Positions 1-52,858 of a stretch of DNA of 64,000 nt are shown piece after piece. The stretch is from assembly GCA_907165135.1 (NCBI GenBank), contig OU015566.1:4650001-4714000 (forward strand). The letters run 5' to 3'. A program made the position numbers and the translations under genes. This DNA comes from Oikopleura dioica. Taxonomy: Eukaryota > Animalia > Chordata. Within the stretch, counting starts at the first letter, position 1; the number at the start of each line of letters is the position of its first letter. The notes beneath the pieces were generated by a model. It ran no database searches. It worked only from the letters and a program-made list of their open reading frames with translations, and was not told the origin of the DNA.

Positions 1-500
1 AAAAAATCTTTTGTTTAGCGATCGAAAGCTCTGTTTTTGCAAGTTCCATTCTCTATTTTGTAAATAATTTTGAGTGATGTGTTGAGCCTGCTGACCTTTA
101 TATGGGCTTTGCAGTTTATGCGCGAGTAACTTGAGAAACATCGCTCTGCAAATATTTCCGGTTCTAGTTGGATTAGATTGTATATTCCATCCGGGCATTT
201 TTCTCACGGCTCGCTTTCAACTCAAGAATTATCCCTGAAAATTGTAGACCAAAGACACCGCGGGTAATCTTTTACTTCCTACAATGCCTTCGGTCTCCTA
301 CTGTGACAAATGCGACGCCCTCTTACGGAAGTAGATGCTCATTTATCCTGCAACTGCAACCCAAATAACAAGATTACAAAATGCTTCAATAGCTCTTACT
401 GCTCTTTACAGGACACTCTTCCTGTCACTTCATCTTTAAGCTTGTTACTTATATAATGACCAATAAATGACATTTTTGAAAGTTTTTTATTACAGTGAGA

Positions 501-1790
501 TTACAGAACTTCCTTTTCGACAGTGCCATGCTCATCGATCGTTATTTTAACTGAATGGCACGACCACATGACCAAAGTTTGAGCTTCCGTAGTTGGTTCT
601 TTGAAATCAAGGACGAGATTCATCCAACCTTGAGTTTCTTCTGTTCCAGAAAACTCGTGAGCAAATATGGACGATTTCTTGAATTGCTCAAGGGATAAGG
701 TGTTTGGTGAAGTCGACGAGACAAGCTTGTCCATGACATCCATCAGTCGAAAATATGGCCAAATCGGAAGTTGGTTAGTTATTCGCTAAAATAGAATTTT
801 TAATAAAATTCAAAAAATTCTTTCTACCATTGGATATCCAAGGCAAGACTGTCCATTTAATGTGAGATTGATGTTTTGCAAGTCTTGATGGAATCCAAAT
901 GCTGTCGTTTCCTTATCAATAGCACCCTGGAAGGATTTCGTATTAGTAAGCCCGAAAAAAAGAACCGCGGGTGTATTCCCTCCTTTGATATTGTGGAGAG
1001 TCAGATTCCCAGTTTTCTCAGGAATGTCTCTAGTTGAAACGGTGATTTCTTGATATTTGTACGAGATAGGCTTTGATTTTATTCGTGTAAAATAGTTTCG
1101 GATCGACGGGCTCGATACATATTCACAAACAGCATAGCAATCCTTTATCTCAAGAGGCTTGCCCTTATGGGTGGCTTGTTCAGGGGTCGAACCGATGTAA
1201 ACGGTAGAAAACTCTGATCGTAGACGGTTGAATTTAAGTTTCATTGTTGTGTTTAGTGGCAGAGGTTTATTATCCAAGCAAAATCCATTACTCGGAAAGA
1301 AAACAAGCTCATATACGTAGTGATCTCCGTCGCGAAAGCATTGCGGTCGACGAATCTGTTTGAGAACCTCTTTATCAGGTTGCGTCAAGTAGTCATAGAC
1401 TTCATGATCATAATAACCCTCAATCTGATAAGCTGATGAGACGTAGTCGCGGTTAAAGTTTCCGAATTTTGTCATGTAATCAGCAAGAAAATATTCGCAG
1501 CTAAATAAGAATTAATTTCGTCAGTCTCTTTCACGACAGCCTTACGTTGTTTTTGAGCTCGAAATGAGTTGGGAATTAATTTCAACTTCCATGACTCCAA
1601 ATTGCTTAGCGGCAAATCCATTACTTGGTATGTAATCTTCATGTAAAGATACAGACATATGAATCGCAATTTTATTTTTTAGGAGAAACAAATTCGGGTC
1701 ACTTTCAAATTCAAAAGTAAGAATTTCCGAAGACTGAAGATCTTTCGGAAAATGTTTCTTTAAAATGCGTTGGTCGTAAGCTTCATCCAT
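501..1790 (-). CDS. Polinton major capsid protein (double jelly-roll type), 3 exons, 400 aa: join(1790..1546,1500..828,785..501)
   Basis: ORFs 1542-1865, 810-1475 and 501-743 fuse in frame after removing GT-AG introns 1545..1501 (45 nt, phase 2) and 827..786 (42 nt, phase 0). Motifs LTFEFESDPNLFL, PLPLNTTMKLKFNR, PAVLFFGL, NINLTLNG and VKITIDEHGTV resemble Polinton PY/MCP. Confidence 0.85.
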
Positions 1791-1824
1791 TTTTCTAAAT
1801 AGAGAAATAAACTTAAAAACGTAT

Positions 1825-2244
1825 TCACCAAATTTTGTTGAGCTCAGAAAAAAGAATTTCGTCATTAACAGAAAGTTTGCGAGAAAATTTAGAAAGTGTT
1901 GCAGAAAAAGAATGAGATTGACGGTACAGAATAAAGAAGCATGAGTACAGCCCGCAGAGAAAAGATTTGGTTGGCTGTATTTTACGAATTTTTCGAATGG
2001 GCTTGGATGAGAGATATGATTTGATACTGTCAGGATAATTTCTGAGGTTGAGACTGTCGTAAACTTCGATCAAATTTTCGTCTTCTCGGATAGCGAGCCA
2101 GTGTGTTCCTTTTTGAGTTGACTTATCTGTGTTTAAAACAAAAAATGAAGGAAAGGAAGAGCACTTAGGGATCTCGTCACTTGGAAAAGATCCGATAAAA
2201 GTTTCGACACGTTGAAGACGTTTCACAATGAGATACTCACTCAT
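1825..2244 (-). CDS. Adenain-like cysteine (maturation) protease
   Basis: LNTD..GTHWLA (His), YDSL (Asp), IQ....FLCGLY (Gln/Cys). Probable start MSEYL at 2244 overlaps the upstream stop (ATGA). Confidence 0.9.
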   Translation of the reverse strand: MSEYLIVKRLQRVETFIGSFPSDEIPKCSSFPSFFVLNTDKSTQKGTHWLAIREDENLIEVYDSLNLRNYPDSIKSYLSSKPIRKIRKIQPTKSFLCGLYSCFFILYRQSHSFSATLSKFSRKLSVNDEILFSELNKIW

Positions 2245-2441
2245 CGTCTTCTCCTTTTGGATCGCTTCCTTGATTTTTTCGAACCGCCTATTTTTCGTGG
2301 GTTCCTTTTTTTCTTTGTTGATTTCTTGATTCCGGTTGACATTTTTGGAGACCATTTTCGCTTTTTTTTTCCCTCACCACTTTGTTGAGAAGGACACCAG
2401 ATTTTGCTTCTCGATTGAAGCGCTTTATTGATCTTCGCCAT
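2241..2441 (-). CDS. Small Lys/Arg-rich protein, 66 aa; candidate DNA-condensing core protein
   Basis: Fills the penton-protease gap exactly, overlapping both neighbours. Ends KKSRKRSKRRRR and contains IGG. Confidence 0.55.
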   Translation of the reverse strand: MAKINKALQSRSKIWCPSQQSGEGKKKRKWSPKMSTGIKKSTKKKRNPRKIGGSKKSRKRSKRRRR

Positions 2442-2802
2442 TCGATTCTCTGATAAGAATTTGGAGAAAAATATCAGAAAATTTAATTTGTCCTTTCTTC
2501 ACTTTGACTTCGAAGTAAGTGGCACCGAGTTCATTTGTTCGCAGAGGAAAGAAGAGTACTTTATAGCCTGAGGACATTCTGAATCCTTTATTGCCAGTGA
2601 GTGTCATCAACAAAGTGTACGGGTTCGGACCAGGCATTGCTTTGACTCCGTTGTAGACAAGTTCTATGAGCGAATAATTGAGTTGCTCTGTTTCAACGGT
2701 TGCACATAAGGAAGTGACCGCTATTTCATAGTTCTTGTTTTCATCTAACACGATATCCGGAAGTTTTATCTTCGGTTCAATTGCGTAAAGACTCAAAATC
2801 AT
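2425..2802 (-). CDS. Putative minor capsid protein (penton, single jelly-roll), 125 aa
   Basis: Beta-rich; N-terminal NYEIAVTSL and C-terminal FFPL...IKF..IFLQILIRE resemble Polinton PX/penton. Genomic position is consistent. Confidence 0.6.
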   Translation of the reverse strand: MILSLYAIEPKIKLPDIVLDENKNYEIAVTSLCATVETEQLNYSLIELVYNGVKAMPGPNPYTLLMTLTGNKGFRMSSGYKVLFFPLRTNELGATYFEVKVKKGQIKFSDIFLQILIRESNGEDQ

Positions 2803-3925
2803 CAGCGATCTTGTTTAATTCGTAATAGTACTTGATTCCTTCTTGTCGATTTCCTTCCAAGTCGGCAATTTTATACCAGACAACTCCTGCTATTTGCCTC
2901 ACGTCAATTATTTTGTAAAGATCTGATGACCAGTTTTGTTTGTAACCTTTATCGAAAATCTCTTTGTTGATTTTAATTCTGACAATATTTCCGATTTTAA
3001 GTCTCGGAGCTGCAACGTCGTCGATGTCCGGATAAAGACTGGCGAAAACTTCCTTGCGGTTTGACTCGTTAACATCCTCAGGCGCCATTTTTATCGACGA
3101 ATGGGGCGTTGAATTGTATCCCTTGATGATTTTTTTCAGGTAATCTATCCATCGTTTCGTCTTGTTTTTCCTCAGACATTTTTCAATTCGCCCCTTTATT
3201 GTCCGAATGGCACGCTCAGCAATGGATGCTTTTAGTTTTGTTTTGATACTATAATGATGTATTCCGTATCGCTCCAAGATCGACTTGACCTTGTCATTGT
3301 AAAATTCTTTTCCTTCGTCAGTTATCAAAGAGTTTGGCCAAGTGTCGAAATCTTGAAATATATCATTTAGACAGTTTGCGGTGGTAGTTTTTTCTTTATT
3401 TTTCATCGGTCTTGCCCAGATATATTTTGTGAAACAGTCGATGACCAATAGAATGAAGGAATTACCTCCGTTATTAAAGGAGTCCTTCTGATATTCAATA
3501 AGATCAGCCATAAAAATCTGCTTGGGATATTTGACAATAATTCTCCGCCGAGGAAATTTCTTTTTGACGATGCGTCTATGAGTACTGTGTATTTTATTCT
3601 GACGAAGAAAATCCGCTATTTTCGCTGTAAAAGCTGGAGGATTTTCGACGTTTTCGTACAATTCTTTCACCGTCAGAGTCTGACTCTTCTGAAGTGGAGG
3701 AGTCGGTTTCTGAGGAAGAACTTTCGTATTTTCTACGTTTTTTTGACTTTCTTTTTGTTCGACGTTTTTTCTTCCTTGATTTCGAGATTCTTTTTGTTCT
3801 CTTTCTTTGTTTTTCGATCGGTTCTTCAGCCGAGCTGCTCGAGTCATCGGTAAAGCTGTCGATTTCTTCCGAGGGTTCTCTCTTGCGAGATTTTTCTTGG
3901 CAATTTTGTTTGATCTGGTCTTCAT
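2777..3925 (-). CDS. Retroviral-like (rve) integrase of Polinton type; start probably at ATG 3925
   Basis: DDE triad IFMADL / LITDEGKEF / KASIAERAIRTIK. C-terminal IGNIVRI..FDKGY..NWS. No chromodomain seen. Confidence 0.92.
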   Translation of the reverse strand: MKTRSNKIAKKNLARENPRKKSTALPMTRAARLKNRSKNKEREQKESRNQGRKNVEQKESQKNVENTKVLPQKPTPPLQKSQTLTVKELYENVENPPAFTAKIADFLRQNKIHSTHRRIVKKKFPRRRIIVKYPKQIFMADLIEYQKDSFNNGGNSFILLVIDCFTKYIWARPMKNKEKTTTANCLNDIFQDFDTWPNSLITDEGKEFYNDKVKSILERYGIHHYSIKTKLKASIAERAIRTIKGRIEKCLRKNKTKRWIDYLKKIIKGYNSTPHSSIKMAPEDVNESNRKEVFASLYPDIDDVAAPRLKIGNIVRIKINKEIFDKGYKQNWSSDLYKIIDVRQIAGVVWYKIADLEGNRQEGIKYYYELNKIADDFESLRN

Positions 3926-4675
3926 TTTTAAGTTCGCTTCAAATTTACGCGATTTCTCTTCAATTTCGAAAAATCGCGAAAAATCAGTTTCGTTAACAAC
4001 GTAACCTTTCATTCCGTCGACTGAGAAAACAACTGGATACTCGCTAAATATATCGGTATAAAACCGATAGCTCGAGGCAAAAGCTCGTGGAGACTGGTCG
4101 ATTAAAAAGTACGGATATTGTTCATATTGGGTGTCAGATTCTGCCGCAGCAAGCGCTTTAGAAAGACCAAGTTGCTGGCAGACACGTTTGTTGATTCTTG
4201 TGTCGACATAATTTCTCAGTAAAATCGTGATATTACACTGATTTCGTATATCACGGGTAAATTTACCAGATGTAAAATTATTCTGTGTCATTATCATCAC
4301 GTTCAGCATATGTTTTCCGCTAGTGACTCTGAAGAGATGATCCACAGCGGTACTTTCAACTGCTCCATCGTAATTATCATCAATAACAATTGTCGTATCT
4401 TCATCCATATCCTCGATATCTTCCTGAGAAGGAATGCCAATTCGATAAGACACTGGGATCTTTAAAGTGTTCTCCCAATTCACGGGACGCTGCTTTATAA
4501 AACATGGATAGTAATAGATGACTCGCTTTGCTTTTCGTTCAAATAAATCGGTTCTCTCAAGAATTTTTCCGGCAAGATACGTCTTTCCGCTTCCGGATGC
4601 GCCACTTAGCAAAATTCTGTATGGATAAGCGAATTTTGTTTTTGGGATTATGTCTCCATTTACAGACAAACTCAT
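3594..4675 (-). CDS. A32/FtsK-like packaging ATPase, copy 1. Appears fused to the integrase in the ORF track because of a 5-A run at 3925-3929
   Basis: Walker A GASGSGKT, Walker B IVIDD, MIMTQN..RDIRNQ motif. The basic/Ser-acidic tail frame ends at TAA 3596-3594. Confidence 0.85.
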
Positions 4676-4754
4676 TTTTGTTATAATTTTAGAGAACTCA
4701 CTTGAATTTATACTTTTTAAAAATGACCTAAGGCATTTTTTGAAATTCGTTTAT

Positions 4755-5324
4755 CTTGAAATATATCATTTAGACAGTTTGCGGTGGTAGTTTTTTCTTT
4801 ATTTTTCATCGGTCTTGCCCAGATATATTTTGTGAAACAGTCGATGACCAATAGAATGAAGGAATTACCTCCGTTATTAAAGGAGTCCTTCTGATATTCA
4901 ATAAGATCAGCCATAAAAATCTGCTTGGGATATTTGACAATAATTCTCCGCCGAGGAAATTTCTTTTGACGATGCGTCTATGAGTACTGTGTATTTTATT
5001 CTGACGAAGAAAATCCGCTATTTTCGCTGTAAAAGCTGGAGGATTTTCGACGTTTTCGTACAATTCTTTCACCGTCAGAGTCTGACTCTTCTGAAGTGGA
5101 GGAGTCGGTTTCTGAGGAAGAACTTTCGTATTTTCTACGTTTTTGACTTTCTTTTTGTTCGACGTTTTTCTTCCTTGATTTCGAGATTCTTTTTGTTCTC
5201 TTTCTTTGTTTTTCGATCGGTTCTTCAGCCGAGCTGCTCGAGTCATCGGTAAAGCTGTCGATTTCTTCCGAGGGTTCTCTCTTGCGAGATTTTTCTTGGC
5301 AATTTTGTTTGATCTGGTCTTCAT
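4755..5324 (-). pseudogene. Truncated, frameshifted integrase N-terminus in the duplicate copy
   Basis: Matches the copy-1 integrase up to CLNDIFQD and then meets the duplication junction. Homopolymer frameshifts are present. Confidence 0.85.
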
Positions 5325-6075
5325 TTTTTAAGTTCGCTTCAAATTTACGCGATTTCTCTTCAATTTCGAAAAATCGCGAAAAATCAGTTTCGTTAACAAC
5401 GTAACCTTTCATTCCGTCGACTGAGAAAACAACTGGATACTCGCTAAATATATCGGTATAAAACCGATAGCTCGAGGCAAAAGCTCGTGGAGACTGGTCG
5501 ATTAAAAAGTACGGATATTGTTCATATTGGGTGTCAGATTCTGCCGCAGCAAGCGCTTTAGAAAGACCAAGTTGCTGGCAGACACGTTTGTTGATTCTTG
5601 TGTCGACATAATTTCTCAGTAAAATCGTGATATTACACTGATTTCGTATATCACGGGTAAATTTACCAGATGTAAAATTATTCTGTGTCATTATCATCAC
5701 GTTCAGCATATGTTTTCCGCTAGTGACTCTGAAGAGATGATCCACAGCGGTACTTTCAACTGCTCCATCGTAATTATCATCAATAACAATTGTCGTATCT
5801 TCATCCATATCCTCGATATCTTCCTGAGAAGGAATGCCAATTCGATAAGACACTGGGATCTTTAAAGTGTTCTCCCAATTCACGGGACGCTGCTTTATAA
5901 AACATGGATAGTAATAGATGACTCGCTTTGCTTTTCGTTCAAATAAATCGGTTCTCTCAAGAATTTTTCCGGCAAGATACGTCTTTCCGCTTCCGGATGC
6001 GCCACTTAGCAAAATTCTGTATGGATAAGCGAATTTTGTTTTTGGGATTATGTCTCCATTTACAGACAAACTCAT
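4996..6075 (-). CDS. Packaging ATPase, copy 2, reading into a basic/Ser-acidic tail
   Basis: Same first ~250 aa as copy 1. A 6-A run at 5324-5329 puts it in the tail frame. Confidence 0.8.
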   Translation of the reverse strand: MSLSVNGDIIPKTKFAYPYRILLSGASGSGKTYLAGKILERTDLFERKAKRVIYYYPCFIKQRPVNWENTLKIPVSYRIGIPSQEDIEDMDEDTTIVIDDNYDGAVESTAVDHLFRVTSGKHMLNVMIMTQNNFTSGKFTRDIRNQCNITILLRNYVDTRINKRVCQQLGLSKALAAAESDTQYEQYPYFLIDQSPRAFASSYRFYTDIFSEYPVVFSVDGMKGYVVNETDFSRFFEIEEKSRKFEANLKNEDQIKQNCQEKSRKREPSEEIDSFTDDSSSSAEEPIEKQRKRTKRISKSRKKNVEQKESQKRRKYESSSSETDSSTSEESDSDGERIVRKRRKSSSFYSENSGFSSSE

Positions 6076-6347
6076 TTTTGTTATAATTTTAGAGAACTCA
6101 CTTGAATTTATACTTTTTAAAAATGACCTAAGGCATTTTTTTTTTGAAATTCGTTTATTAAATCCCTGATTTGCAGTGGGTTTCAGCGAAGTTAAGCATC
6201 ATTTTAAGAACAGTATATCGTCAATAATTTTTGAATAAATTGTCTTCGTTTGATGATATCGGTATCGTTTCTTGTGATGATTACGCCTTCATTTTATGAT
6301 TTCCTCATTTTGTGAAGAGTGATCCCCGCCGCCAAGCTAAGTAAGAG

Positions 6348-6440
6348 CACGTGACCAAAAGATGTCGCTAATACGTTCTCGGTATGAGCTCACGTGTCCT
6401 ACTTAGAAACTAGGCAACCTCAGCGTGAAGTCAGCACGTG
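6348..6440. promoter_or_regulatory. Three CACGTG E-boxes upstream of the ATPase-integrase-capsid block
   Basis: CACGTG at 6348, 6391 and 6435, in a gap between ORFs. Confidence 0.4.
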
Positions 6441-6460
6441 GCTCCCTCTTTTGGATCAGT

Positions 6461-6767
6461 TCAGCTTAAAACGCTGGCAACAAGAATGTCCATCACCAAC
6501 TTTTGAAATGAATCAAAATATATTTGAATTTTTTCTTTTTCCAAATCCTTAAAATGAGTCAATAGGGACTTACAGTGATCGACGAATACTAGCAGTTTTT
6601 GTGAAATAATGCGATAAAATGACAACCAGAGAAGATAAAAATACTGCAAAGAAAACGGCCTTTTTATAAAATGCTGCCTGATATTTATTAATTGTCATTG
6701 TCATTGGCTTTAATAAAACGAAAAGAGAATTGAGTTGGTAGTTTATTTTTTGACAGTTGATTGGCAC
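6461..6767 (-). CDS. Two small overlapping hydrophobic ORFs (6570-6767 and 6461-6649), possible viral membrane proteins
   Basis: AVFFAVFLSSLVVILSHYF is transmembrane-like. Both ORFs are co-oriented and overlap neighbours like other genes of the element. No family recognised. Confidence 0.3.
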
Positions 6768-7180
6768 AATGGACAGTTATTTTTTTGTTCGAGCCATCTT
6801 TTTATACAGGAAAGGTGAAATTCATGTTGGCAGGAGGGGATCGTCCCAATAAGAGTGTTTTCCATTTTCTCCAAGCAGATTGGACAGGGATCGGTATGTC
6901 TTGCGATACTTTGTGACAGAGCGGCGCAGCGCTGCTCAACTTCTTCAGAAGGAGCGCGTCTTGGCCAAATTAACGGAGGAACGATTCGCCCGTCTGGGGT
7001 GATGTAGATTCCAGAACGTCGTCTCGGATCTCCTGGTGAAGGAAAAGTTGACGCAATGAATTGATCTTTTCCAAATACAAAGTTCCGCTCGACAAACTCG
7101 CTTCCACATCTGATGCAACAATATGGACGGCAGATAAAATTGCTGTCGGACCCGCATGCAATACATGAATAAAGCGGCAT
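6743..7180 (-). CDS. RING-H2 E3 ubiquitin ligase with N-terminal zinc ribbon (RNF115/RNF126-like architecture), intronless, 145 aa
   Basis: CIAC..CCIRCGSEFVE, then CPIC..C.HEFH..CI..W..CPLC. Confidence 0.85.
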   Translation of the reverse strand: MPLYSCIACGSDSNFICRPYCCIRCGSEFVERNFVFGKDQFIASTFPSPGDPRRRSGIYITPDGRIVPPLIWPRRAPSEEVEQRCAALSQSIARHTDPCPICLEKMENTLIGTIPSCQHEFHLSCIKRWLEQKNNCPLCQSTVKK

Positions 7181-7331
7181 TCTTAAAATTTCTAAGGGTG
7201 TATTTGGTTACTAGCAAGAAAGAGAAAATTGGTTATCAGAATATGACAGTAAGTAAGTAGAGAGAGTAAGAAAGTAGCTGGGAATCACCAGGAAAAGTCG
7301 CAAAGAAAGGCAAAAAGCATTACTGAAAAAG

Positions 7332-8043
7332 TTACTGAAAGAAACCAGCGAAGAGATGTCTGTTCTCTCTTATGTCCACACCATGGTAGCGGAATCGTAT
7401 GTTGCAAGTAACACATTTTTTCTTCAGCGTTTTTGTTTTCTCCACGCAAGATGCGCAATAGTAATGGCGGCATGGCATCTATTAAAGGGTTAATCATAAG
7501 CGTATTTTTTTGACGAACAGGTAATAGTCAAAGAAGGCAAAATGACTCTATTTTTAATATAAGAAGAAAACATAGTTATCATTTCGCCGTCTTTGAAAAT
7601 CACAGCTTCAATTTTATCTCTCATAGTATGAATAACCCTACCTCTAAAGTCGGACCTTTCTCGAGACAAATAAGACAGGTATTTTTCTCTTCGTCGGTTA
7701 TTTCCTGTTCTCGAGCCATTCGCAAATCGGCTTTCCGAATAATTGAGCCGGAAGGTTCAGCCCAATGATATTCTAATGGTCCCCAGTCGCGAAAAGCTCT
7801 GTGAAAATCGCGTATGTAGACTTTTTTCCTTGTAACGAGAGCATGTTTTAGAAGTTGCTCCCATTCCAAAGGGGAGAAGGGTCGATAGAAGTGATCTCCA
7901 CACTTGTCGCAGCAATCTTCAACATCGAGAATGGGACCTTCCGCGGGGAATCTTTTTGAAAGAAGTCGAGTCTCTGTATCGCAAGCCATGCAGTAGATAT
8001 GAGCATGGCGAGTTGTCACAACATATTTTTCTTTAAGAGCCAT
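7332..8043 (-). CDS. RING-HC E3 ligase with N-terminal zinc ribbon, 2 exons, 182 aa: join(8043..7642,7478..7332)
   Basis: CLIC in exon 1. After the GT-AG intron 7641..7479, exon 2 reads MPCRHYYCASC...KCVTC and completes C3HC4 in frame. Confidence 0.85.
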
Positions 8044-8194
8044 TTTTTTCGAACTGATATTTTTTTGACAGTGAGAGTACTTATATATCTTCAGCGAGGT
8101 TCTCAAGCGTAAATTTTTATAGAGCAGAACATCCGACCTAATTCTACAACCTTAATCCAATTTCTTGTCAAGAGATAAAAACGACCAGCCAGTC

Positions 8195-8314
8195 TGTCTT
8201 CCGGAAGTGCGGTAATCCTACTGATAAGCCGAAAGTGTGAAATTGATCAGTCAGTACTTCCGGTATAGTACTTCCGGTGACCTTTCCGGAAACATGGGCT
8301 TTTTTATTACTACT
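8195..8314 (-). repeat. Putative Polinton terminal inverted repeat end
   Basis: AGTAGT terminus. Short direct repeats AGTACTTCCGGT and palindromes CTTCCGGAAG and TTTCCGGAAA. The partner TIR is outside the window. Confidence 0.65.
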
Positions 8315-8447
8315 AAGGTTCAATTTTTGGCGGCTTTTTTGTTAAAAAATGACAAATTTCCGTCTCGAAAAAGCTCTTATTACAGATTTTCAGTCAAAAA
8401 TTGGCAGTTTTTCGGAGATTTTTGAGCAACTTCGAGGATTTTCGAAC

Positions 8448-9020
8448 CCTTTTCCTAACAATTACAGCCGTAACCAGCGAATAAATCGTCCAAATCACCA
8501 GAAATCGTTTAAAACCCGCGCTAATAGCCCAAATGACTGGAATTATCAGCATTCCAAGAAGAGTAGCGGCGTTATAACTTCTTTTGTGGCGCTTCTGCCA
8601 GACGAATAGAATAATTTGAGCGGCAAAAAGGGTTCCAAAAAGCACAAGCACCATTTTCGTATGCATATCTTCATGACCTTAGGAATTGTGTTTGGGTAAG
8701 ATTGTCGATTTTGACAGGAAAAAAGCGTTTTCGATGCAACTTAAATGGTCTTGCTCCCTATTTTTGTGTCAAAAATACCTATGAAAAGTGATTTTTGACA
8801 GAAAAAATTAATTCTTATCATTTGAACATCTTTTGTTCGCTAATTTTCGCTCAATATAAAGGAATTTTCCCCTGAAAATCGCATTTTCGAGTGAAACTTG
8901 ACAGAAAAGGTAAACTCCTTTGAAAAATTTGAATAATTATAACTAACCTTCATGTTCTTTCAAATATTTTTTCTGCTCTTCTATTCTTTTCATTCTTTCT
9001 TCTACCGTTTCTATTCCCAT
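8448..9020 (-). CDS. RNF121: RNF121/RNF175-like gene, exons 1-2 only: join(9020..8948,8677..8448)
   Basis: MGIETVEE..KEHE-GHEDMHTKMVLVLFGTLFAAQ..WQKRHKRSYN..RFLVIW matches the RNF121 N-terminal TM region. The RING-coding exons are not in the window. Confidence 0.85.
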
Positions 9021-9090
9021 TTTCTTCAAATTTCTCTCTCTTCAATAAATAATTCGTCTTTTTCAAATTTTCCTTTTTCTCGCTGAAAAA

Positions 9091-9132
9091 TGACTCATCG
9101 CGCGCTCCACCGCAGCTGGCACCGCTGAGTCA
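9091..9132. promoter_or_regulatory. Inverted pair of AP-1-type sites upstream of RNF121
   Basis: TGACTCA 9091-9097 and TGAGTCA 9126-9132 flank a GC-rich spacer. Confidence 0.3.
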
Positions 9133-9254
9133 TCGTTTTCTCAAGTGATTCACTTTTCGGAAAGAAAAAATTGTATTTTAACCCTATTCTAGAGTTCACG
9201 ATTTCAACCAATGAGAAGTCAAAGAAACGGAATTGATTAAAAGTTAAAAATTAA

Positions 9255-9947
9255 GGGTAGGGTCCCCGTACAGGCCCAAAGCAGCGAGACTCTCCTCCGA
9301 ACCTATCAATGCTGGGAAGGCGTGTAATGGCTCAAATGAAATTTCAATCTTAGATCTTCTGATTGACACGAGCTTTTTTTGAAATTCCAAGAGAAAATTC
9401 ACGTGCGGTTCGCTCAAAGTTGTCGTCTCACCCAAAAATCGCGAAAATAGCCAATATTCAGGGCGACTCTCCTCCAAAGTGAGCAATGAAAACCCCCTCG
9501 ACTCTTTTGTAGGGTAAAGTTTGGACCCTAATCTTAAAAATGACACGAGCTTTTTTCGATTGGTCAAAATTTTCAATGTTAAAAATTTTAAAGTACGAAG
9601 GTACCCATTTTCCGTCCCTCTGACTCCGTGAATTGCCTTGCGGGCATAGCCCAAAAGCCGCCGTTCTCATCTCAAATAGATGTCCTGAACGTGGGCTTTC
9701 CAAAATATGACACCCTAACATATGACACCCTAACATAACGACTAAAAATTGTAAAAATTTTAATTAATATTTCCGCCTTTTAGCCAAAATGCACTAATTT
9801 TCGCCATTTTCGATTGCAATTTGTGCGAAAATGGGTTGAGATAGAGATAATACTCATAGGGAGTTTTTTGCTCAGAATTTCATGGAGATTCAGAAAAAGT
9901 GGTCAAAAACCGATTCTGAGACTTGACCCTGTACGGGGACCCTACCC
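9255..9947. mobile_element. TTAA-flanked MITE (Kolobok-like)
   Basis: Perfect 20-bp TIR GGGTAGGGTCCCCGTACAGG with TTAA on both sides. Confidence 0.85.
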
Positions 9948-11001
9948 TTAAAGTCCGACAAAATTTTTGCGCTAATCAAAAACCAACATTCAGGCTGAAT
10001 TATTCAGCCAATCTCTCAATCAGGGGTCTAAATTCGCAGTGCGAATTCGCATTATTGCGAAGCGATTGCGATAGCTTTTTGTTTGCACTTTCAATTTCCT
10101 TTAGCTTCTTCTGCTTTTGGCTAATTCCTGAAAATAAAATGTATAAAGTTTACTTCCAAAGAAAATGGTCCAAGGATCAAACAAAGAAAGCATCGAAAGA
10201 AAAGCCCTTTTTCGCCTCAATTTCTTTAATCTACCTGTTATTGCTAAAACTGGTAACAAGTTTCTTTCGAATGTGTAGGGCTTGATGATCTTGAGCATGC
10301 ATCAATTTATGAATAACATCCTTCAAATCTACCCCAGCCGTCCATAAAAACCCTTTGACTCCGGAAATCACTGCTTTAATTAAAATCAATTTGAGCTTTA
10401 AGCTCTCATTTTCTTTTGAAAGGTCCAAAACAACTCCCGAAACTCATTCTCTCCTATTGTAGAATCTTTATAATCTAAAGAGTTTTTATCCTAGCAGGGT
10501 TCGAAATGTAGCAATATATTGCTGCTACATGCTACACGTGCTACATCCCTCAAAAAAAGTCCCTGCTACATGCTACATGTGCTACACCCCCCAAGATAAA
10601 GGAGCAAGCAGATGCGCACGCGGCTTGGCGAAAACAGAAAGGAATTGAGTTTCGCTTCGCAGAAGAGCAGCATCTCTTGGCGCAGAAAGATCAAAAGACC
10701 AAGTCTGAAGAGGCAAAACGGAAGAAAGCAGCGTAAGTCCACGATTTCTCAGTCTTTTTCACCGATTTTAAAGGACAAAAGCAGCGAATATCGCGCGTCA
10801 AGAAGCAAGAAGCCACCCAAAAGTGCACTTGGACCTTCGATCGGCCGAGGACAGATGCTCCAGCAAGCTCGCCAGAGAAACAACCCACTGGACAATTTGG
10901 CGTCCGGGAAGCTCCAGCTCCTGAGCTGAGAAAAAAACAGGAAGAACAAGCCTGGAATCTAGAAAATCACGTCCACAAGGAGCAGCGCAAGAAGGACAAA
11001 T

Positions 11002-11610
<609 letters not shown>

Positions 11611-11835
11611 AACCAGAACTGACAACCTTTTAGTGAAAATTTTACTCATGAACCGATTACCACTGCCTAAAGATCCTTCAGTTGATCCCCTCTTAGATTT
11701 AACCCTTATTGATCTGTCCTATTCTAAGTTCCTGAAATTTAATTTTGGAAAACGTCCGCTGAAAAGCGTTGAGTACTGTAAATATTTTACCTTCAAAATA
11801 TTGAATTAAGAATAGTCGCTGCTACTGATAATGGC

Positions 11836-12162
11836 AAGAAAGTCTTTCGACAGGTCGAGTACTATTTCGGCGACCTGAATCTCCAGCGAGATAGATTTCT
11901 CATGGACGAAATGAAAAAGGACGAAGGCTGGATTTCACTTGATACCATGATGAAGGTGTGCAGCTATCTCTATCCGAAACGCTTTTCTTTTTTTTAGTTC
12001 AAAAGGTTAACCAAAATCGTTGACAACAAGAAGGAAGGTGTCACCGCCGCTCTCGAATAGATCAGAACTGATTTGATTGAGGTTTCTGAATATAAAACCA
12101 AGATCCGACGAGTCACCAGCAAACCCATCCCAGTCTACGATGATAACGACAAACGACTTCAG
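11836..12162 (+). pseudogene. SSB: La/SSB La-motif fragment, 42-nt intron retained
   Basis: RQVEYYFGDLNLQRDRFL..DEGWISL..FKRL..LIEVSEYKTKIRR. In-frame TAG 12058-12060; no RRM follows. Confidence 0.85.
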
Positions 12163-14290: not shown

Positions 14291-16405
14291 CAGTTTGTTT
14301 CCAAATTTCCGGACTAATTTTGTCCCCAGATTTCTGAAAAATGTCCGGAAATTCGGGTCACCTGAAAAAATGCATGTCCTACCAACGATCCTTAAAATTT
14401 TTCAAAATAAGGTGAGTTCCTCGTATAGGACTCGTCTTTACGCAAAAACAGACGAGAACAAAGTGGGTAGGATAGGAGAACTCAAGGATAAGCACAAGAA
14501 AGTCAATATAGGACAAAATAAATCCAATTTAGACAAAAGTGTAAAATTTTTCCAATCAAGTTTATTTTGCCATAAATGAATTCAGCGTGTTCGAAAACCC
14601 CGGAAAACCTTTATTTCCGTCTTCCGGTACCAAAAAGTGATAAGCGCGGCGCTTCAAAGTGCCGAAATCGGAAATTTTCGAAGTTTAGTTTTGGGAAGAA
14701 GTAGAGTAGATATCAAAATTCTAATTTAACAGAGTTTTAGATAATCGTTTGAACCGCCAGGCAAACGTTTAAAAATATAAAATGTTTATGTTTAACTCCT
14801 TTTTCTAGCGCTCAAAGTTGACCTTATTTTTGTGAGCGCGCGCAACACTCATCTTCGCCGATCGACTCGCTCAAAATACTTGGATTTTCATGAGAATTAG
14901 TAGACATACGTAACTTTTTCTCCTCTTTTCAAATCAATTCGAATTTTTATTTAAGCTTATTTTGGGGAGAGTTACAGCGGTACATAGAAGCTCAAGTTCA
15001 AGCACGCTAAAAGGCATCAAATATTATCCATTTCATAATAAAACTAAGCTCATTAAAAAGCTCGTGTTTTTATGGAAGAAAAATTCATTGGGGCGCATAA
15101 AGACATTATCGAGACATAATGATAAAAATCGGTCTGTTTATCTGTTTGCGCGCAAAAACTCAGCGGGAATCCACCTCTCTTTAAACAGGGCCGGGCGCAC
15201 CGGGGTGTCAACTAAAATCTCTCGATTATTCGCAAAGTCAATATTTCTGAGACAAATTTTTACATTCAGTTTTGTAGAGAATTAAACGGGCTTTTTAATG
15301 AGCTTAGTTTTATTGTGAAATGGATAATATTTGATGCACTTTAGTGTGCTTGAACTTGAGCTTCTATGTACCGCTGTAACTCTCCCCAAAATAAGCTTAA
15401 ATAAAAATTCGAATTGATTTGAAAAGAGGAGAAAAAGTTACGTATGTCTACTAATTTTCATGAAAATCCAAGTCTTTTGAGCGAGTCGATCGGCGAAGAT
15501 GAGTGTTGCGTGCGCTCACAAAAATAAGGTCAACTTTGAGCGCTAGAAAAAGGAGTTAAACGTAAACATTTTATAATTTTGAAACGTTTGCCCGGCGGTT
15601 CAAACGAAATTAGAATTTTGATATCTATTCTACTTCTTCCCAAAACTAAGGAACACTCCACTTTGTGTCGCGGTCAAAACTTCGCACCTGGAAAACACGA
15701 GCAGGATGAGCCATTGAGTAAATATGATCACATGGCACATTGAGCCCACGCACGGACCAAAATCGTGATAACCGGGGTTAAGAGTATTTTAGAGTAAATT
15801 AGGCAAGATTTGACCAATTTATATTTTTGGCGTTTTGAGGCTTATACGCCGCTGAGCTTGATCTTGGACTGAATGTGCCCTGTACTCATACTTACTCAAT
15901 GGCTCACACATCTCGTGCCGAGAGAGCAGTCTCTGCAGGAGTTAGCACATGTCGTCGAACTCTTGCATCCTATTTGCTCGGCTGGAGATCCTACCCGTAC
16001 TTTCCAGGTGCGAAGTTATGACCCCGACACAAAGTGGACAGCCCCAAAACTAAACGTCGAAAATTTCCGATTTCGGCACTTTGAAGCTCCGCGCTTATCA
16101 CTTTTCGGTACCGGAAGACGGAAATAAAGGTTTTTCCGGGGTTTTCGAACACGCTTAATTCATTTATGGCAAATAAACTTGATTGGAAAAATTTTACACT
16201 TTTGTCTAAATTGGATTTAATTTGTCCATATTCAACCTTTGGTTCCATTTTTAGAAGAAAATATATGAATAACAGTCAAAATTTTTCTGAATTTAAAAAA
16301 GTCCGGAAATTTAGGTCATCGTCAACTTGGCAGTGTCTCACTCAAACCCCTTAAAATCTGAAAAGTGTCCGGAAATTTTGACTCCGGAAATTGGGCAACA
16401 AACTG
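14291..16405. mobile_element. Tc1/mariner-type non-autonomous element with nested internal palindromes
   Basis: TA|CAGTTTGTT...AACAAACTG|TA ends. 14500-14697 is inverted at ~16045-16230, and ~14690-15062 is inverted at ~15290-15650. Confidence 0.75.
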
Positions 16406-32881: not shown

Positions 32882-35800
32882 TTATCTTAGCCAGCTTCTG
32901 ACAGTTTCTTCTGGAAATTCAACGTCATTTTCGCGGAAGAATTCGATATACTCTCTGATGTATGAGTTGATCATCTCGATTTCGTCTGAAAACAAATTCA
33001 ACCCCATTGCCAATAAGATTAGTTAATTCATCAAGAGGTTCTTTTTGACTGTTTTGTCCAAAATAGATCGAGAAATCTTACCTGGTTTGTAGATTTCAAA
33101 GTCGAGTTCAACTTTTTTCTTTTAAATTTGTCCAAATTATCGTTTTTGATGCAATTTAGTCGCTGATCGATGTCTTCCACTTCGAATTTTCCATGCGGAG
33201 CCGCCTCGTTTTCCAAGAAACTGTAAACTTCCCTCATTTGCGCTTCTTTCTCTGTTTTCAGCAAATCGTACCAGAGAAAATGAAAGTTTTTCTTGCTGTT
33301 GACGGCCAGATGGACCGCGTCTTTGTAGTACTGTCGCCACATTTCCGCGGTGTTTTGAATGTATCGTCGCCATTTTAGCGATTTGAAGAGCGCTGGGTCG
33401 ATGGTGCCAGTGTGCGCGCCCTGGCCGTCGCCGGTTTCTTTTTCCGCCATGATTCGGTTGAAATTTGCTTTGATGGTGTCGTAGGGGTTGCGGATGACGA
33501 GGACGACGGCGTGGGCTTTTCGGATGTGTCCTCGAGCGTGGGACTTGATTCCTGAAAAATGATTTCTTTGGCGATAAGGGTATGTATGATTGATTTATGA
33601 AAACAAAGTGTGGGATGACTAAGTTCGTGGGGACTAGGTTCGTGGGACTAGGTTCGTGGGTGGCTGGCTGGAAAACGTGGTTCGTGGGACTAGGTTCGTG
33701 AGTTTTTGATTTTATATGTATATTTTTATTTATAATGATTAAGTGTTATTTATATGTATATATTTATTTATATATATTTATATATATGTATTGTAATTAT
33801 ATGATCATATAATATAATATTGCTATCTAAATATAGGTTCGATGGTTTTTGATTGGTTAGAATTTTTATTCTATAAGGAAAAATATGTGCGACTAGGTTC
33901 GTGGGACAAGGTTCGTGGGTTTTTAATTGGTTATTATTTTTATTCTATAAGGAGAAATTATGTGCGACTAGGTTCGTGGGACTAGGTTCGTGGGTTTTGA
34001 AATTTTTAATAAGGAAAAGTGGGGTGCGACTAGGTTCGTGAGACTAGGTTCGTGGGTTTTGAAATTTTTATAAGGAAAAGGGAGGTGCGACTAGGTTCGT
34101 GGGACTAGGTTCGTGGCTTTTAAAAATTTTTTTATTTAAGGAAAATGGGGTGCGACTAGGTTCGTGGGACTAGGTTCGTGGGTTTCTATTTTTAAAGGAC
34201 GTGCGACTAAGTTCGTGAGGCTTAGTTCGTGAGACTAAGTTCGTGGCGACTAAGTTCGTGAGACTAAGTTCGTGAAATTTAAAATTTGAGAAATTTAAAT
34301 TTATTGAGTTCTCAAGCCTTAAATACTTTAAGAAAAAGTTAGCTTGCTAAATAATTCCGTTATAGTTATCACCAACTCTTCTAAGGCAACCATTGTTATT
34401 CAGCGCTAACATAGAAATTCAGTTAAAGAGCCTAGCGGCTTATTTTGGGGGTGGGGGTGGGAAAGTCATTTTTACCATTCAACTTTACCCAATTTTACAA
34501 TCCACGAACCTAGTCCCACGAACCTAGTCGCACTCAACTGTTCCTTATAAAAAAATTTCAAAACCCACGAACCTAGTCCCACGAACCTAGTCTCACGAAC
34601 CTAGTCTTCACGAACCTAATCTTCACGAACCTAGTCCCACGAACCTAGTCTTCACGAACCTAGTCTTCACGAACCTAGTCCCACGAACCTAGTCGCACCC
34701 CCATTTTCCTTATAAAAAAATTTCCAAACCCACGAAACTAGTCCCACGAACCTAGTCGCACTCAATTGTTTCTTATAAAAAAATTTCAAAACCCACGAAC
34801 CAAGTCCCACGAACCTAGTCGCACTCAATTGTTCCTTATAAAAAAATTTATAATTTTTATAATACTTATAATACTTATAGAAAAATCTCTAATTTCAAAA
34901 CCCACGAACCTAGCACCCCTACGAACCTAGTCCCACGAACCTAGTCGCACCACATTGTTCCTTATAGAAAGGAAACCATACCCCATCTTGCATACTTTGG
35001 CATAACCACCTACGAACCTAGTCCCACGAACCTAGTCCCCACGAACTTAGTCATCAATCCCAAAACAAAGCTAACAACTTTTTGGAGCACTTGAATCATC
35101 ATGTTTAATTGACCTCTCCGATTGGATTCCCGTTTGGAAGTCTTTGTATTCACTAAATATTCGTACAACCAAGAGCTATTGACTATTGCGTTTTTCTCGA
35201 AAATATTATCATTCCCGAATGAGCACAAAAAAGGAGGATTTTAAAAAGGAAAACAAACATGCGCGTCTTTTCTTTTCTGTTTTTGAGCTCAATTTTCGAA
35301 AGGCAGAAAAAATAAAAGCATCAGTATGGAAGAAATTTCGTCAACCCTTCTCTTTCCCGACTCATTCTTCGGGTCAAAAATTGGAAAACGCTTGATCCAG
35401 GAATAGTTATCTAGGCCCTAAGTTTGAGGTTCTTAAAGACCAGGTTATACAATAACGTAGCGTGCTTACGCCATCATAATTATTATCGTAACAGTTCTCT
35501 TCTTGTTTCATTTAGATAATTTATTTTCACTTCACGCTCACATTTTCGGCCTTACACAAAAGTCTCGCTTTACCTAAAACTCTGCCGGACTCAGGAGAAA
35601 AATGCTCTCCCGGAAAAGGCGATTGTTCGTACAGATCGTCATTATCGAGTTCGTCTTGTATCTCGTGATAGACTCCTCCCGCGTAGTAGCCCGTCAGCGA
35701 CTGAAAAAGCTGCCTCGTCCAGGTGTTTCCAGATCCTTGCACCGAAAGAATCAGAATCCAGTTGAACTGGCCCGGTTCTCCGATTTTTACGTCGTTTTTG

Positions 35801-43101: not shown

Positions 43102-46100
43102 ATGAAGGTAATTTTTCCTTTTTGCGGATATTTTTGATGATTTTTGTGTCTCAAAAAGCTAGAGAATATTATTCAAAGAGATAAAGAGGAATTTCATTTG
43201 CAATTTATAGGAGATAATTATCATAAATTATCTTTTATAATAAGAAAACAGCTAGAAATTCTAATAGATCCTTAAGATTTTTTGTTTTATTTTATTTCAA
43301 AAATATTTTCAGCTTCTGGCGACCATCAGCTCCGCCCTTGCCGGGTCGCCCGGTATTGACTTTTACCTCAACGACGGTGACTACTGGCCGATTGGTGCAT
43401 GCAGTTCTGATAAGGCCTGTTCCGCCTGGAGAATCAGCACCAAGCCTGGGTGGGAAAAAACTTGGGCCGCAAACTTGAAGTGTGATCTCAGCGTCGAAAA
43501 GTGCACTTGCGCCGATGGTTGGGTCGATCTCGACGGAAAGCCAGAAAATGGCTGCGAATCAAAGGCCGGTGAATCTCTTCTCGGCGGTATGTGCTATTAC
43601 AGTAGCTGTTTTCTAGAAGATAAGTGCAATGAGTTCCATCCTGGGCTCGTCTGCTCTAAGATAACTGGCTGCTGCGAGTGTGAAGGAGAAGAACCCCTTC
43701 GACCAACAATTTTTGGTCAAAATAAGGGTTGTCTGGACAAGAATTGCCCAGAAGGAGCTGTTTGGGATAAGGAAATAAAATGGTGCCTCTGCGAAGATGG
43801 AAGACTTCCCCAGTACAACTTGCCTGACCTCGATGATAGTGTCTGTTGTCCACCAGGACTTTGGGGAAATCCATGTGGTTGCTCGAACGGAGTGATTCCG
43901 GACCTTACTGCCGAAGATCCTTGCGACCCTGGGTGTCCGGAGAATCTGTATTGGGATCCAAGCACGAAACGTTGCGAGTGTCCTGGGAATCTTGTCTACG
44001 ATCCAAGTACTGGACAATGCGAATGCCCGGAAGGTATGCTACCCGGAGTAACAGGAAATTGTTTCTGCCCGACAGGAACTTACGAGGTAACTGGCGTTGA
44101 GCCGACTAAGTGCTGCCCTATCGGAACCTGGTACAACCCCCAAACAGAAAGATGCGAAGAAAATGATCATGACAACTGCCCCCCAAATATGTACACAGTA
44201 CCAAATGTGATTCCACACCAGTGCTGTCCTGATGACAGTGTTTGGGATCCCGTGACACAAGAGTGTGACTGTCCAGAAGGACATTATCTAACAACCGATC
44301 CTTTGTATGTTTCTATTGAAAGAAACGTTTGCTGTCCTGATGGAACTGTTTACATTCCTTCGTTGGATAGTTGTGATTGTCCAAATGGTTCCTATGCGGT
44401 TCCTGACGAAAGTCCGACACAGTGTTGTCCAGACGGGTCTCAATGGCAAGCCAACACGCGTACTTGCGAATGTCCTGAGGGAACCTATCTAACAACTGAT
44501 GATTACGACCGAGAAGTTTGCTGTCCGGAAGGAACTAAGTGGATTCCACACTTGGACCGATGCGACTGCCCTCCTGGTACTTACGCTGCCAGCATCAATC
44601 CTATTCGATGCTGCCCAGACGGTTACAATTGGAATGAAGATTTCAATGACTGTGTTCCAGATGACGGGCTTTCTCATTGCCCAGAAGGAACTTATGCTGT
44701 TGCTGGAATCACCCCACTCCAATGCTGTCCCGAGGGAACCGAATGGGATCATGATAAAAACATGTGTGTCGATCCATCTGATCCAACTGACCCGACTGGA
44801 TCCCCTTGCCCAGAAGGAACCTACCCAGTTGCTGGAACAAATCCTGTTGAATGCTGTCCTGAGGGAAGCCATTGGGATTTTGAGAAGAAAACCTGCCTCG
44901 ATCCAACTGATCCAGTTGACTGTCCTCCAGGACATTACCCCGTTGCCGGAACAGACCCTGTCGAGTGTTGCCCTGATGGTACCCACTGGGATTTTGAAAA
45001 GAAAGCCTGCGTTGATCCAGTCGATCCTATTGAGAAATGCCCTGAAGGAACATACCAAATTCTTGGGATTGTCCCTCTTAAATGTTGTAAAATCGGCACT
45101 TTCTGGGATCCTGATCGAGAAATTTGCGGTGATCCTACCGATCCAGTTGATCCAATCGAGGAATGTCCAAAAGGCTTCTATCAAGTTGCTGGAGTAACTC
45201 CTCTTCAATGCTGCCCAGAAGGAACAAAATGGATTCCAGAGCTCAAGCAGTGCATGTGCCCAGACGGATCTGACCCAGTCGCCGGCCAATTCCCTCCATG
45301 CGAAGACCCTGAGCAATGTCCAAAGGGAACCTACCTTGTTGAATTTGTCTTGCCACAAATTGTCTGTTGTCCACTTGGTACCAAATACGTCCCTGATCGT
45401 GACGAATGCCTCTGCCCAGACGGCAATCCAGTCGACGACCTTGGCCTCTGTGTTGACTGTCCAGAAGGAGAATACGCTGTTTCACGATTCCCTGAACTCA
45501 TTTGCTGCCCAGAAGGAACATGGTTCGATAAGGAGATGAAAGAATGCCTCTGTCCTGATAAAACGAAGCCGGACGAGAATGGCGATTGCGTCGATCCTTC
45601 CGATAAATGCTTAAGACCATTAAAATACGATTTTATCACTGGAATGTGCGTTTGCTGGAATGGAGAACCACCAATTGAAGGCGAAGCTACCGTCCCCGTT
45701 GACGAATTTGGCTGTCCACCAAATGACTGCCCTGAAGGTCAGAACGCGTTCTTCGACAAGAAAGGAAACCTCCAATGCTGCCGAGAAGGACTTGTCTACA
45801 ATATCCAAAAAGACACTTGCGTTTGCAAAGACGGAACCCTTCCAACCGCCACTGGCGATTGTGGATCTTGCGAAAAGTGGCAAAACGCATTCTACATCGA
45901 AGATCAGATCATTTGCTGCGGAGTTAATGAATACTACGCTGCTGATCATAAACACTGCATGTGCACTGACGGTACGCATGTAGAAAAATGTCCTTTTCCA
46001 TGCAAAGACAACGAGATTCATGAAGTTGATCCGACTGGAATGACCGCTGGCGAGTGTGTCCCGATGTGCGATGATGGACACGTTTTCAACAAGCTCACTA

Positions 46101-51047: not shown

Positions 51048-52858
51048 TAGGGTCAGGCATTTTCACGTGATCACCGCTGTACACGCTAAATTTTTTGGTT
51101 AGTAGCCTAGGGGTACTGATTACAAAAACATAGCGGCCCTCGCTTAACCCCACAACACCCTTACCATTTTAACCCATTTTCTGTTTTACTCGTTTTTTGC
51201 CAATTTGAAGGAGAAAAGGTATTTTTTCTCAATTTTATGCGTACAGAAATAATTATTTTATAATTTTTATAGAGCTAAAAGTTAAAAAATAATTTAACTT
51301 GGGATGCCTAAGGAAAAAACGACTTTTTTCCATAATAAAGACCATAAATAGGCAAAAAACAAGAATTATTTGACTTTTAATAACGATGGGTGTGGGTGGG
51401 GTTGGGGACATAATTGAGATTGATCAACTCAGTGTTCCAAGCCTTTGTCAAGCCCCTTAAATTTAAAAATAAAGGAACGGGGCTGAGACGGCCCGAAGGG
51501 CCGTCAAGCCCTTAAATTTAAAAATAAAGGAACGGGGCTGAGACGGCCCGAAGGGCCGTCAAGCCCCTTAAATTGAAAAATAAAGGAACGGGGCTGAGAC
51601 GGCCCGAAGGGCCGTCAAGCCCCTTAAATTTAAAAATAAAGGAACGGGGCTGAGACGGCCCGAAGGGCCGTCAAGCCCTTAAATTTAAAAATAAAGGAAC
51701 GGGGCTGAGACGGCCCGAAGGGCCGTCAAGCCCTTAAATTGAAAAATAAAGGAACGGGGCTGAGACGGCCCGAAGGGCCGTCAAGCCCTTAAATTGAAAA
51801 ATAAAGGAACGGGGCTGAGACGGCCCGAAGGGCCGTCAAGCCCTTAAATTGAAAAATAAAGGAACGGGGCTGAGACGGCCCGAAGGGCCGTCAAGCCCCT
51901 TAAATTGAAAAATAAAGGAACGGGGCTGAGACGGCCCGAAGGGCCGTCAAGCCCTTAAATTGAAAAATAAAGGAACGGGACTGAGACGGCCCGAAGGGCC
52001 GTCAAGCCCTTAAATTGAAAAATAAAGGAACGGGGCTGAGACGGCCCGAAGGGCCGTCAAGCCCTTAAATTGAAAAATAAAGGAACGGGGCTGAAACGGC
52101 CCGAAGGGCCGTCAAGCCCCTTAAATTGAAAAATAAAAGAACGGGGCTGAGACGGCCCGAAGGGCCGTCAAGCCCTTAAATTGAAAAATAAAGGAACGGG
52201 GCTGAGACGGCCCGAAGGGCCGTCAACCCCCTTAAATTGAAAAATAAAGGAACGGGGCTGAGACGGCCCGAAGGGCCGTCAAGCCCCTTAAATTGAAAAA
52301 TAAAGGAACGGGGCTGAGACGGCCCGAAGGGCCGTCAAGCCCCTTAAATTGAAAAATAAAGGAACGGGGCTGAGACGGCCCGAAGGGCCGTCAAGCCCTT
52401 AAATTGAAAAATAAAGGAACGGGGCTGAGACGGCCCGAAGGGCCGTCAAGCCCTTAAATTGAAAAATAAAGGAACGGGGCTGAGACGGCCCGAAGGGCCG
52501 TCAAGCCCTTAAATTGAAAAATAAAGGAACGGGGCTGAGACGGCCCGAAGGGCCGTCAAGCCCTTAAATTGAAAAATAAAGGAACGGGGCTGAGACGGCC
52601 CCCAGATATTGGTTGAGAATATATTTTTACTTATTTTTTTTATTTTTTTTTATTTTTGACACGTAAAAAACAATATTTACACTGAAAAAATCATTATTTT
52701 TATGAAAAATAGGGATTTTAGCAAATGGGTTAAAATATATAGGACGTTTTTTGGTTAAGTGAGGGCCGCTATGTTTTTTGTGATCAGTACCCCCCAGGCT
52801 ATCACCCAAAAAAATATTAGCGTGTACAGCGGTGATCACGTGAAAATGCCTGACCCTA
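51048..52858. mobile_element. hAT-type MITE nested in the composite element and carrying the satellite
   Basis: TAGGGTCAGGCATTTTCACGTGATC TIRs (over 100 bp, imperfect). 8-bp TSD GTCTAGAT at 51040-51047 and 52859-52866. Confidence 0.9.
51447..52601. repeat. 55-56 bp tandem satellite, about 21 units
   Basis: Unit CTGAGACGGCCCGAAGGGCCGTCAAGCCCTTAAATTGAAAAATAAAGGAACGGGG; 20 complete hairpin cores. Confidence 0.95.

Follow-up and report, generated by a model that had tools for sequence, protein, structure and literature searches.

The window analysed here is a 64,000-nucleotide stretch of the Oikopleura dioica genome (contig OU015566.1, positions 4,650,001 to 4,714,000). We read its left-hand part as a Maverick/Polinton-like element that is inserted in a host intron. 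The likely left terminus of the element is an AGTAGT motif at 8314-8309 on the minus strand, the only minus-strand copy in positions 1-12000, and short CCGGAAG repeats are situated inside this end at 8277, 8263, and 8204. One AGTAGT end lies within the window, and the element continues past base 1, beyond which its second terminus and a protein-primed DNA polymerase B gene would lie. All of the element genes seen are on the minus strand, with a two-exon gene for a RING-HC protein upstream of the core genes. Elsewhere in the window, positions 43589-48103 of the plus strand contain a 1504-aa open reading frame with spaced cysteine-rich repeats, and MITE-like inverted repeats with a 55-56-nt tandem array are found at 33621-35054, 14594-16144, 51398-52638, and 54353-56497, with an inverted relative at 28860.

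Exon 1 of the RING-HC gene (8043-7642, minus strand) comprises 402 nt, or 134 codons, from an ATG at 8043. It encodes an N-terminal CxxC...CxxC pair that is predicted to form a zinc ribbon, a helical linker, and the first CxxC of the RING, and it ends eight residues past that CxxC. The intron (7641-7479, minus strand) is 163 nt long and interrupts the first RING loop in phase 0. It starts with GTAGGG, ends with TTAATAG, and contains stops in all three frames; its GC content is 30%, compared with 44% and 43% for the exons. When the frame is read on unspliced past exon 1, a stop is reached after six codons. Exon 2 (7478-7332, minus strand; 147 nt, 48 codons and the stop) supplies the remaining six RING ligands, C-H-C-C-C-C, and a conserved tail, so that the spliced product is 182 aa long. 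The coordinates, phase, intron boundaries, and RING motif all agree with the first-pass annotation of this DNA, as does its statement that removal of the intron yields a complete C3HC4 motif, with ligands 1-2 in exon 1 and the other six in exon 2. The open reading frame 7621-8106 from which it started does end at 7621, but its extent has to be corrected: the frame that starts with ATG covers 7621-8043, and the frame from stop to stop covers 7621-8151.

There are six GT dinucleotides between 7700 and 7601, and the one at 7641 alone is in phase 0; six AG dinucleotides occur between 7600 and 7401, and the one at 7479 opens exon 2 directly. The alternative donors at 7676, 7667, 7655, 7636, and 7603 give no full RING because of their phase or a stop just upstream of exon 2, and the alternative acceptors at 7591, 7548, 7546, 7440, and 7422 fail because of phase or a stop before exon 2. 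When the 462 nt behind the donor were shuffled with dinucleotide composition preserved, an AG followed by the in-phase rest of a RING was obtained in 0 of 20,000 shuffles. The donor at 7641 and the acceptor at 7479 unite two open frames across a GT-AG boundary of the spliceosomal type. The exon-intron anatomy of the gene is real and beyond chance. At the level of sequence the intron is very probably genuine, and the host spliceosome likely removes it, which would complete the RING.

The eight ligands of the spliced product follow the order C-C, C-H, C-C, C-C at RING spacing, as in a RING-HC (C3HC4) domain. Exon 1 alone has no match in Pfam. Exon 2 by itself covers positions 18-44 of the 49 in zf-C3HC4_3 (E 5e-05), and in several RING profiles it aligns with the final two thirds. 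In a public O. dioica gene model, P0003, residues 5-134 of exon 1 run straight into exon 2, and the sequence is identical throughout; the model may stem from the same assembly and is therefore a second prediction rather than independent data. In this spliced model the RING expected from the first-pass annotation was recovered over profile positions 1-43 (E 5.5e-06), but the score of 26.5 bits lies just under the Pfam cut-off of 27. The cut-offs are exceeded by exon 2 of two related loci described below, L005 (27.7 versus 27) and L003 (24.7 versus 21), and by an intronless paralogue at L005:2290-2784 (PF00097, 23.6 bits versus 21).

The structure prediction for P0003 is of middling quality, with a pLDDT of 66 overall and about 75 at residues 191-220. 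In the Protein Data Bank its top Foldseek matches are to RING domains (RNF141) with a probability of 0.97, although E is 0.11-0.15, and nothing was found at E <= 0.001 among PDB or viral structures. In a wide VIA structure search with the same model the matches were taken up by the host-derived helices 1-81, and atlas searches with the N-terminal domain and the host exon gave no usable lead. The N-terminal CxxC pairs are invariant across the eight sequences of alignment A4, and the N-terminal domain is without an assigned family.

The product shares with the C3HC4 RING E3 domain (PF13920, PF00097) the same eight ligands in RING-HC order. It differs in its score just under the Pfam cut-off, in the family-less N-terminal domain, and in the Asn that follows the last Cys and presumably sits at the linchpin position in place of the usual Arg. 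This Asn may mean weak, dimer-dependent, or decoy activity. In RING E3 enzymes as outlined in the accessible text of PMC12326332, the RING recruits an E2 and another part of the protein binds the substrate. The balance tips slightly toward the RING-HC product being a true ubiquitin ligase in activity.

Relatives of the gene are few. A protein search of 1.84 billion representatives gave five matches, namely P0001, P0015, and the raw gene calls P0016-P0018, which are 32-36% identical; word-indexed searches gave two relatives. Metagenome contigs were scanned with a pattern derived from the raw-call alignment, and relatives were encoded at 5 of the 104 matches. These five loci fall into three sequence types (L003/L004, L005/L006, and L007). 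P0018 and P0017 are encoded by L004 and L007 and are therefore not further evidence. The loci L001 and L002 were dropped as relatives, their matches of 18-19 residues being at chance level. No relative was found when viral and metagenome contigs were scanned with the exon 1 protein, or when viral contigs were scanned with P0016, alignment A4, and the capsid model P0010.

A phase-0 GT..AG intron lies between RING ligands 2 and 3 in all five related loci (sites picked by eye), with a length of 38, 45, or 114 nt. The exon behind the intron completes the RING in each of them, and the RINGs have matches in Pfam. The introns themselves are unlike that of the window, as 345-407 of 500 shuffles score as high. 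In the window gene and its relatives the intron follows ligand 2 by 8, 7, or 11 residues and precedes ligand 3 by 2, 4, or 19, so that the loop and the phase are the same, but not the codon; this may reflect a sliding intron or independent gains within a loop that varies.

Exon 2 is conserved between L005 and L007, with a dN of 0.20 and a dS of 1.59 (dN/dS about 0.13). P0015, an O. dioica model and a paralogue, is collinear over the junction, and 29 of 47 residues of exon 2 are identical (62%). Across the junction, the intronless paralogue at L005:2290-2784 has 34% identity in 139 residues, and it encodes the zinc-ribbon cysteines and the RING in one frame, in the same domain order as the window gene. 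The same-loop introns in homologues, the conservation of exon 2, and the intronless paralogue together support the reading of an intron within a RING-HC gene. The raw-call pairs P0016/P0019 and P0017/P0020/P0021 are alike up to the donor and different behind it. At L005:1284-2784 an intron-bearing family member is followed in tandem by an intronless one, an arrangement that echoes the corresponding RING pair of the window. The open reading frames upstream in L005/L006 have no family match.

The closest relative is P0001, with 128 of 134 residues of exon 1 identical. The donor codon reads Glu in P0001 and Gly in P0002, so there is no phase-0 GT at this place, and from the sequence the donor of these two may be non-canonical, shifted, or lost. 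For O. dioica introns, the accessible text of PMC8008620 gives 11% as non-canonical and a median length of 49 nt.

The RING-HC gene is followed toward the core by a second accessory gene (6743-7180, minus strand), which is intronless and encodes a RING-H2 protein of 145 aa (Pfam zf-RING_2, 46 bits, cut-off 27.3) with its own N-terminal CxxC...CxxC. Paralogy of the two RING genes was considered and is not claimed: the pairwise match (E 1e-04) is weak and driven by cysteines, and the hhalign probability for the N-terminal parts is 1.7%. Then follow two copies of a 1.4-kb tandem duplication, all on the minus strand. The first copy (4745-6200) contains a putative P-loop ATPase gene and the start of an integrase, and in the second (2777-4750) the ATPase and the rve integrase share a single uninterrupted frame in the assembly. 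The copies, within window positions 3300-6200, are 99.4% identical over 1410 nt with 5 gap openings; the duplication may be real or an assembly artefact. The candidate packaging ATPase has a Walker A motif and weak P-loop matches, and the integrase matches Pfam rve (PF00665) with 46.1 bits against a cut-off of 32.6, as is characteristic of Maverick/Polinton elements. Further along the minus strand are a 125-aa open reading frame without a family match (2425-2802) and a putative adenain-like, adenovirus-type cysteine protease (1825-2355; Peptidase_C5, PF00770, E 0.0023, 18.1 bits, under the cut-off of 21.3). The gene order ATPase-integrase-capsid is also seen in model P0013.

The major capsid protein gene consists of three exons (1790-1546, 1500-828, and 785-501, minus strand) that encode 400 aa. 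Its two introns are 45 nt (1545-1501, phase 2) and 42 nt long (827-786, phase 0); both are bounded by GT..AG, both contain an in-frame stop, and the length of both is a multiple of three. The first-pass annotation had called the RING-HC gene the second intron-bearing gene of the element, and the capsid gene with these two gaps bears this out. Over their full length, the capsid exons align with O. dioica models at 43-77% identity, among them P0004 (77%) and P0010. For P0010, which is 43-53% identical to the exons of the window, 76 viral Foldseek matches were obtained at E <= 0.001, and the top structural matches are mostly major capsid proteins, although the model is weak (pLDDT 42, TM 0.2-0.3). 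On the predicted structure, the protein would be the double jelly-roll major capsid protein of a Maverick/Polinton. A sequence search with the capsid family gave no match to a solved structure or a phage protein. Models P0005-P0014 of the public O. dioica annotation include at least two additional capsid families, with 5 and 3 named models, and the source labels none of these as viral. Downstream of the capsid gene, window positions 1-490 (minus strand) hold a gene in several short GT..AG-bounded pieces that has stops in each of its reading frames and may be one more element gene with multiple introns; a polymerase-like start around 490 was without support.

A related element family with 80-90% nucleotide identity matches the window up to the GT at 1545-1544. 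It keeps 237 letters across 1310-1544, a stretch of about 233, and one joint in this family begins at 790, beside the second capsid acceptor. Judging from these alignments, both capsid introns seem to be retained in the DNA-like contigs of the related family. A spliced capsid intron is absent from the 6 joints listed on 1-4740, where the RNA is from a diverged population. The raw call P0012, from a family whose protein is about 53% identical, ends at the place of capsid intron 1, and this intron appears to be common to the window and both families.

The RNA data bear on both the element and its surroundings. Four RNA runs placed 102 reads on 6150-10500, all on host sequence and 0 on the element part. 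The host exons are matched mostly at less than 90% identity, so that the runs stem from a diverged population, and since this population is 10-20% diverged, read placements on 6150-10500 and on 1-4740 are weak evidence either way. Neither RING gene has reads, and the host exons are read at 85-90% identity. A run search for 6700-8320 gave no RNA run. On 1-4740, the poly(A) run X5 contributed 139 reads from the related element family, on both strands, of which 129 are less than 90% alike. They span the capsid, the protease, the 125-aa open reading frame, the integrase, and the tail of the ATPase, with DNA carry-over being possible, and hint that related elements are transcribed in another population.

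These data are relevant to the idea that the RING-HC gene is a decayed or unexpressed passenger, with an ancestral intron, a silent or damaged element, and no protein produced. The ATPase-integrase region, with its tandem duplication and small indels, would fit, as would the lack of reads on the RING genes and the missing GT donor in P0001. However, both exons are open, all eight ligands are present, the splice sites are canonical, and the duplication may be an artefact of assembly; the poly(A)-run reads on the core genes of the related family, although on both strands and open to DNA carry-over, point the same way. We consider such a passenger distinctly improbable.

The host gene is represented by its 5' exons at 8447-9013, on the same strand as the element, and we take it to be RNF121-like. 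Its intron 8947-8678 is used in RNA, with the joint 8676-8947 present in 8 reads of run X4 and in 15 reads each of X5 and X6. The element is apparently situated downstream of these exons in the next host intron, where we infer the 3' end of the exon to be near 8447. The 3' part of the host gene was not recognised within the window. In P0003 the host exons are joined to residue 5 of exon 1 of the RING gene, which raises the question of whether the RING exons have been exonised into the host gene to give a chimeric, membrane-anchored RING protein of 256 aa. The shared strand of the element genes and the host gene would permit this, and the source annotation used RNA hints, according to the accessible text of PMC8008620. 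Against it, loose read ends at 8539 (12, 25, and 18 reads) continue the host exon past the donor of the model, as judged by eye, although this population may lack the insertion; moreover, P0001 and P0002 start with their own Met at the place equal to 8043. The fusion in P0003 is probably wrong, and exonisation appears very unlikely.

The first-pass annotation had also placed the RING-HC gene inside the AGTAGT terminus, and the motif at 8314-8309 does lie beyond the ATG at 8043. Because the gene is inside one AGTAGT end and the host gene is interrupted there, we hold with good confidence that it is element cargo. The patchy distribution of the family, and the lack of reads on the element where the host exons of the diverged population are read, add to this. 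On the related contigs, five short ones of 1.1-3.4 kb, the surroundings of the gene contain neither a Maverick core gene nor an AGTAGT end, so that linkage to an element is shown for the window copy only. The same five contigs, together with the relative that is in tandem with a paralogue, would suit an ordinary host gene with a real intron that stands beside the element or was recently engulfed by it. A single end motif is seen in the window, and from base composition a hexamer would occur by chance in a 400-nt stretch with an estimated probability of roughly 0.1-0.15. The gene nevertheless has AGTAGT on one side and the ATPase on the other, within a host gene with expressed upstream exons, the 3' part of which is not recognised in the window. 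Reads of the diverged population fall on the host exons but on neither RING gene, and a family with five matches among 1.84 billion representatives and two in word-indexed searches is patchy for a host gene. An ordinary host gene is thus unlikely, if somewhat less so than a decayed passenger. Our main reading, to which we assign a probability of roughly 70%, is that of a two-exon accessory gene inside the AGTAGT end of a Maverick/Polinton-like element, likely spliced, that encodes a 182-aa zinc-ribbon and RING-HC protein predicted to be a ubiquitin ligase or adaptor.

Nematode Mavericks carry intron-bearing cargo genes, wasp proteases and krma kinases, between terminus and integrase (bioRxiv 10.1101/2022.07.12.499685, accessible text). 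Similarly, the present element has an intron-containing gene of host style within the 2-5 kb that separate terminus and integrase, and an intron in a Maverick cargo gene as such is of a known kind. The cargo differs, being zinc-ribbon and RING-HC and RING-H2 proteins instead of proteases and kinases. The nematode core genes are called intronless in that text, whereas the capsid gene here has two introns, and the nematode cargo is defined by several copies or host-to-host movement, whereas the cargo here is known from one copy. With intact vertebrate Mavericks, as described in the accessible text of PMC8097293, the element shares the AGTAGT motif at its likely end, which is their commonest end motif, the integrase and capsid genes, putative ATPase and protease genes, and an accessory region that flanks the core. 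No introns are seen in the vertebrate elements in that text, in contrast to at least three here; the two stop-bearing GT..AG gaps in the capsid gene set the element apart from the intact vertebrate type with intronless core frames.

RING finger proteins occur in virophages and Polinton-like viruses of Halocafeteria (bioRxiv 10.64898/2026.07.28.741278), and adintoviruses have accessory "Oncoid"/IAP genes (PMC8502044), so that RING or paired-CxxC accessory proteins are found on other Polinton-type elements as well. The likeness drawn here is one of description, and the accessible parts of both sources mention no spliceosomal intron in these genes. Spliceosomal introns do occur inside dinoflagellate Maverick/Polinton-like proviruses (PMC11957031), where, in the text accessible, they are mostly young introner insertions acquired after integration. 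Here, in contrast, unrelated introns at shared or nearly shared places in proteins that are 28-53% identical point to old introns. The accessible texts of PMC10748475, PMC8502044, PMC12220804, and PMC5240408 make no mention of spliceosomal introns in such genes. A literature search, with supplements, Repbase, and key older papers outside its scope, turned up no account of introns in the capsid gene of an animal Maverick and none of this RING family, and titles and abstract beginnings on Oikopleura together with Maverick or Polinton contained nothing on the gene structure of these elements. What is new is an undescribed zinc-ribbon/RING-HC family and the capsid introns in a chordate Maverick.

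In the mechanism we propose, the RING-HC gene would have been taken up, intron included, from a host-like gene family and would travel with the element. Because Mavericks replicate through DNA and no spliced RNA intermediate is involved, the intron would persist. The element would be transcribed in the nucleus and the intron removed by the host spliceosome to give the 182-aa product with its predicted N-terminal zinc ribbon and C-terminal RING-HC domain. The RING would bring in an E2, with the substrate bound by the N-terminal part, so that the protein could act on host proteins as a ubiquitin ligase or a ligase adaptor. From viral accessory RING proteins, our guess is that the protein would serve in the control of host defence or the cell cycle.

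Mavericks are usually found and annotated as clusters of intron-free open reading frames. The RING was halved by ORF calling in all five raw gene calls (P0001, P0002, and P0016-P0018), and the capsid gene is split in three; as a consequence, annotation overlooks such elements with their accessory ligases or models them wrongly. As a tentative and rather speculative extension, larvacean Mavericks may form an old, splicing-dependent lineage in which the introns of the capsid and the zinc-ribbon/RING ligase genes have been kept down to 30-50% identity, in which the elements are mobile and transcribed, and in which the ligases disarm host control. Should the introns be both old and in use, a chordate Maverick would need the host spliceosome even to make its capsid, and it would provide candidate ubiquitin ligases in a laboratory animal where their expression and function are testable.
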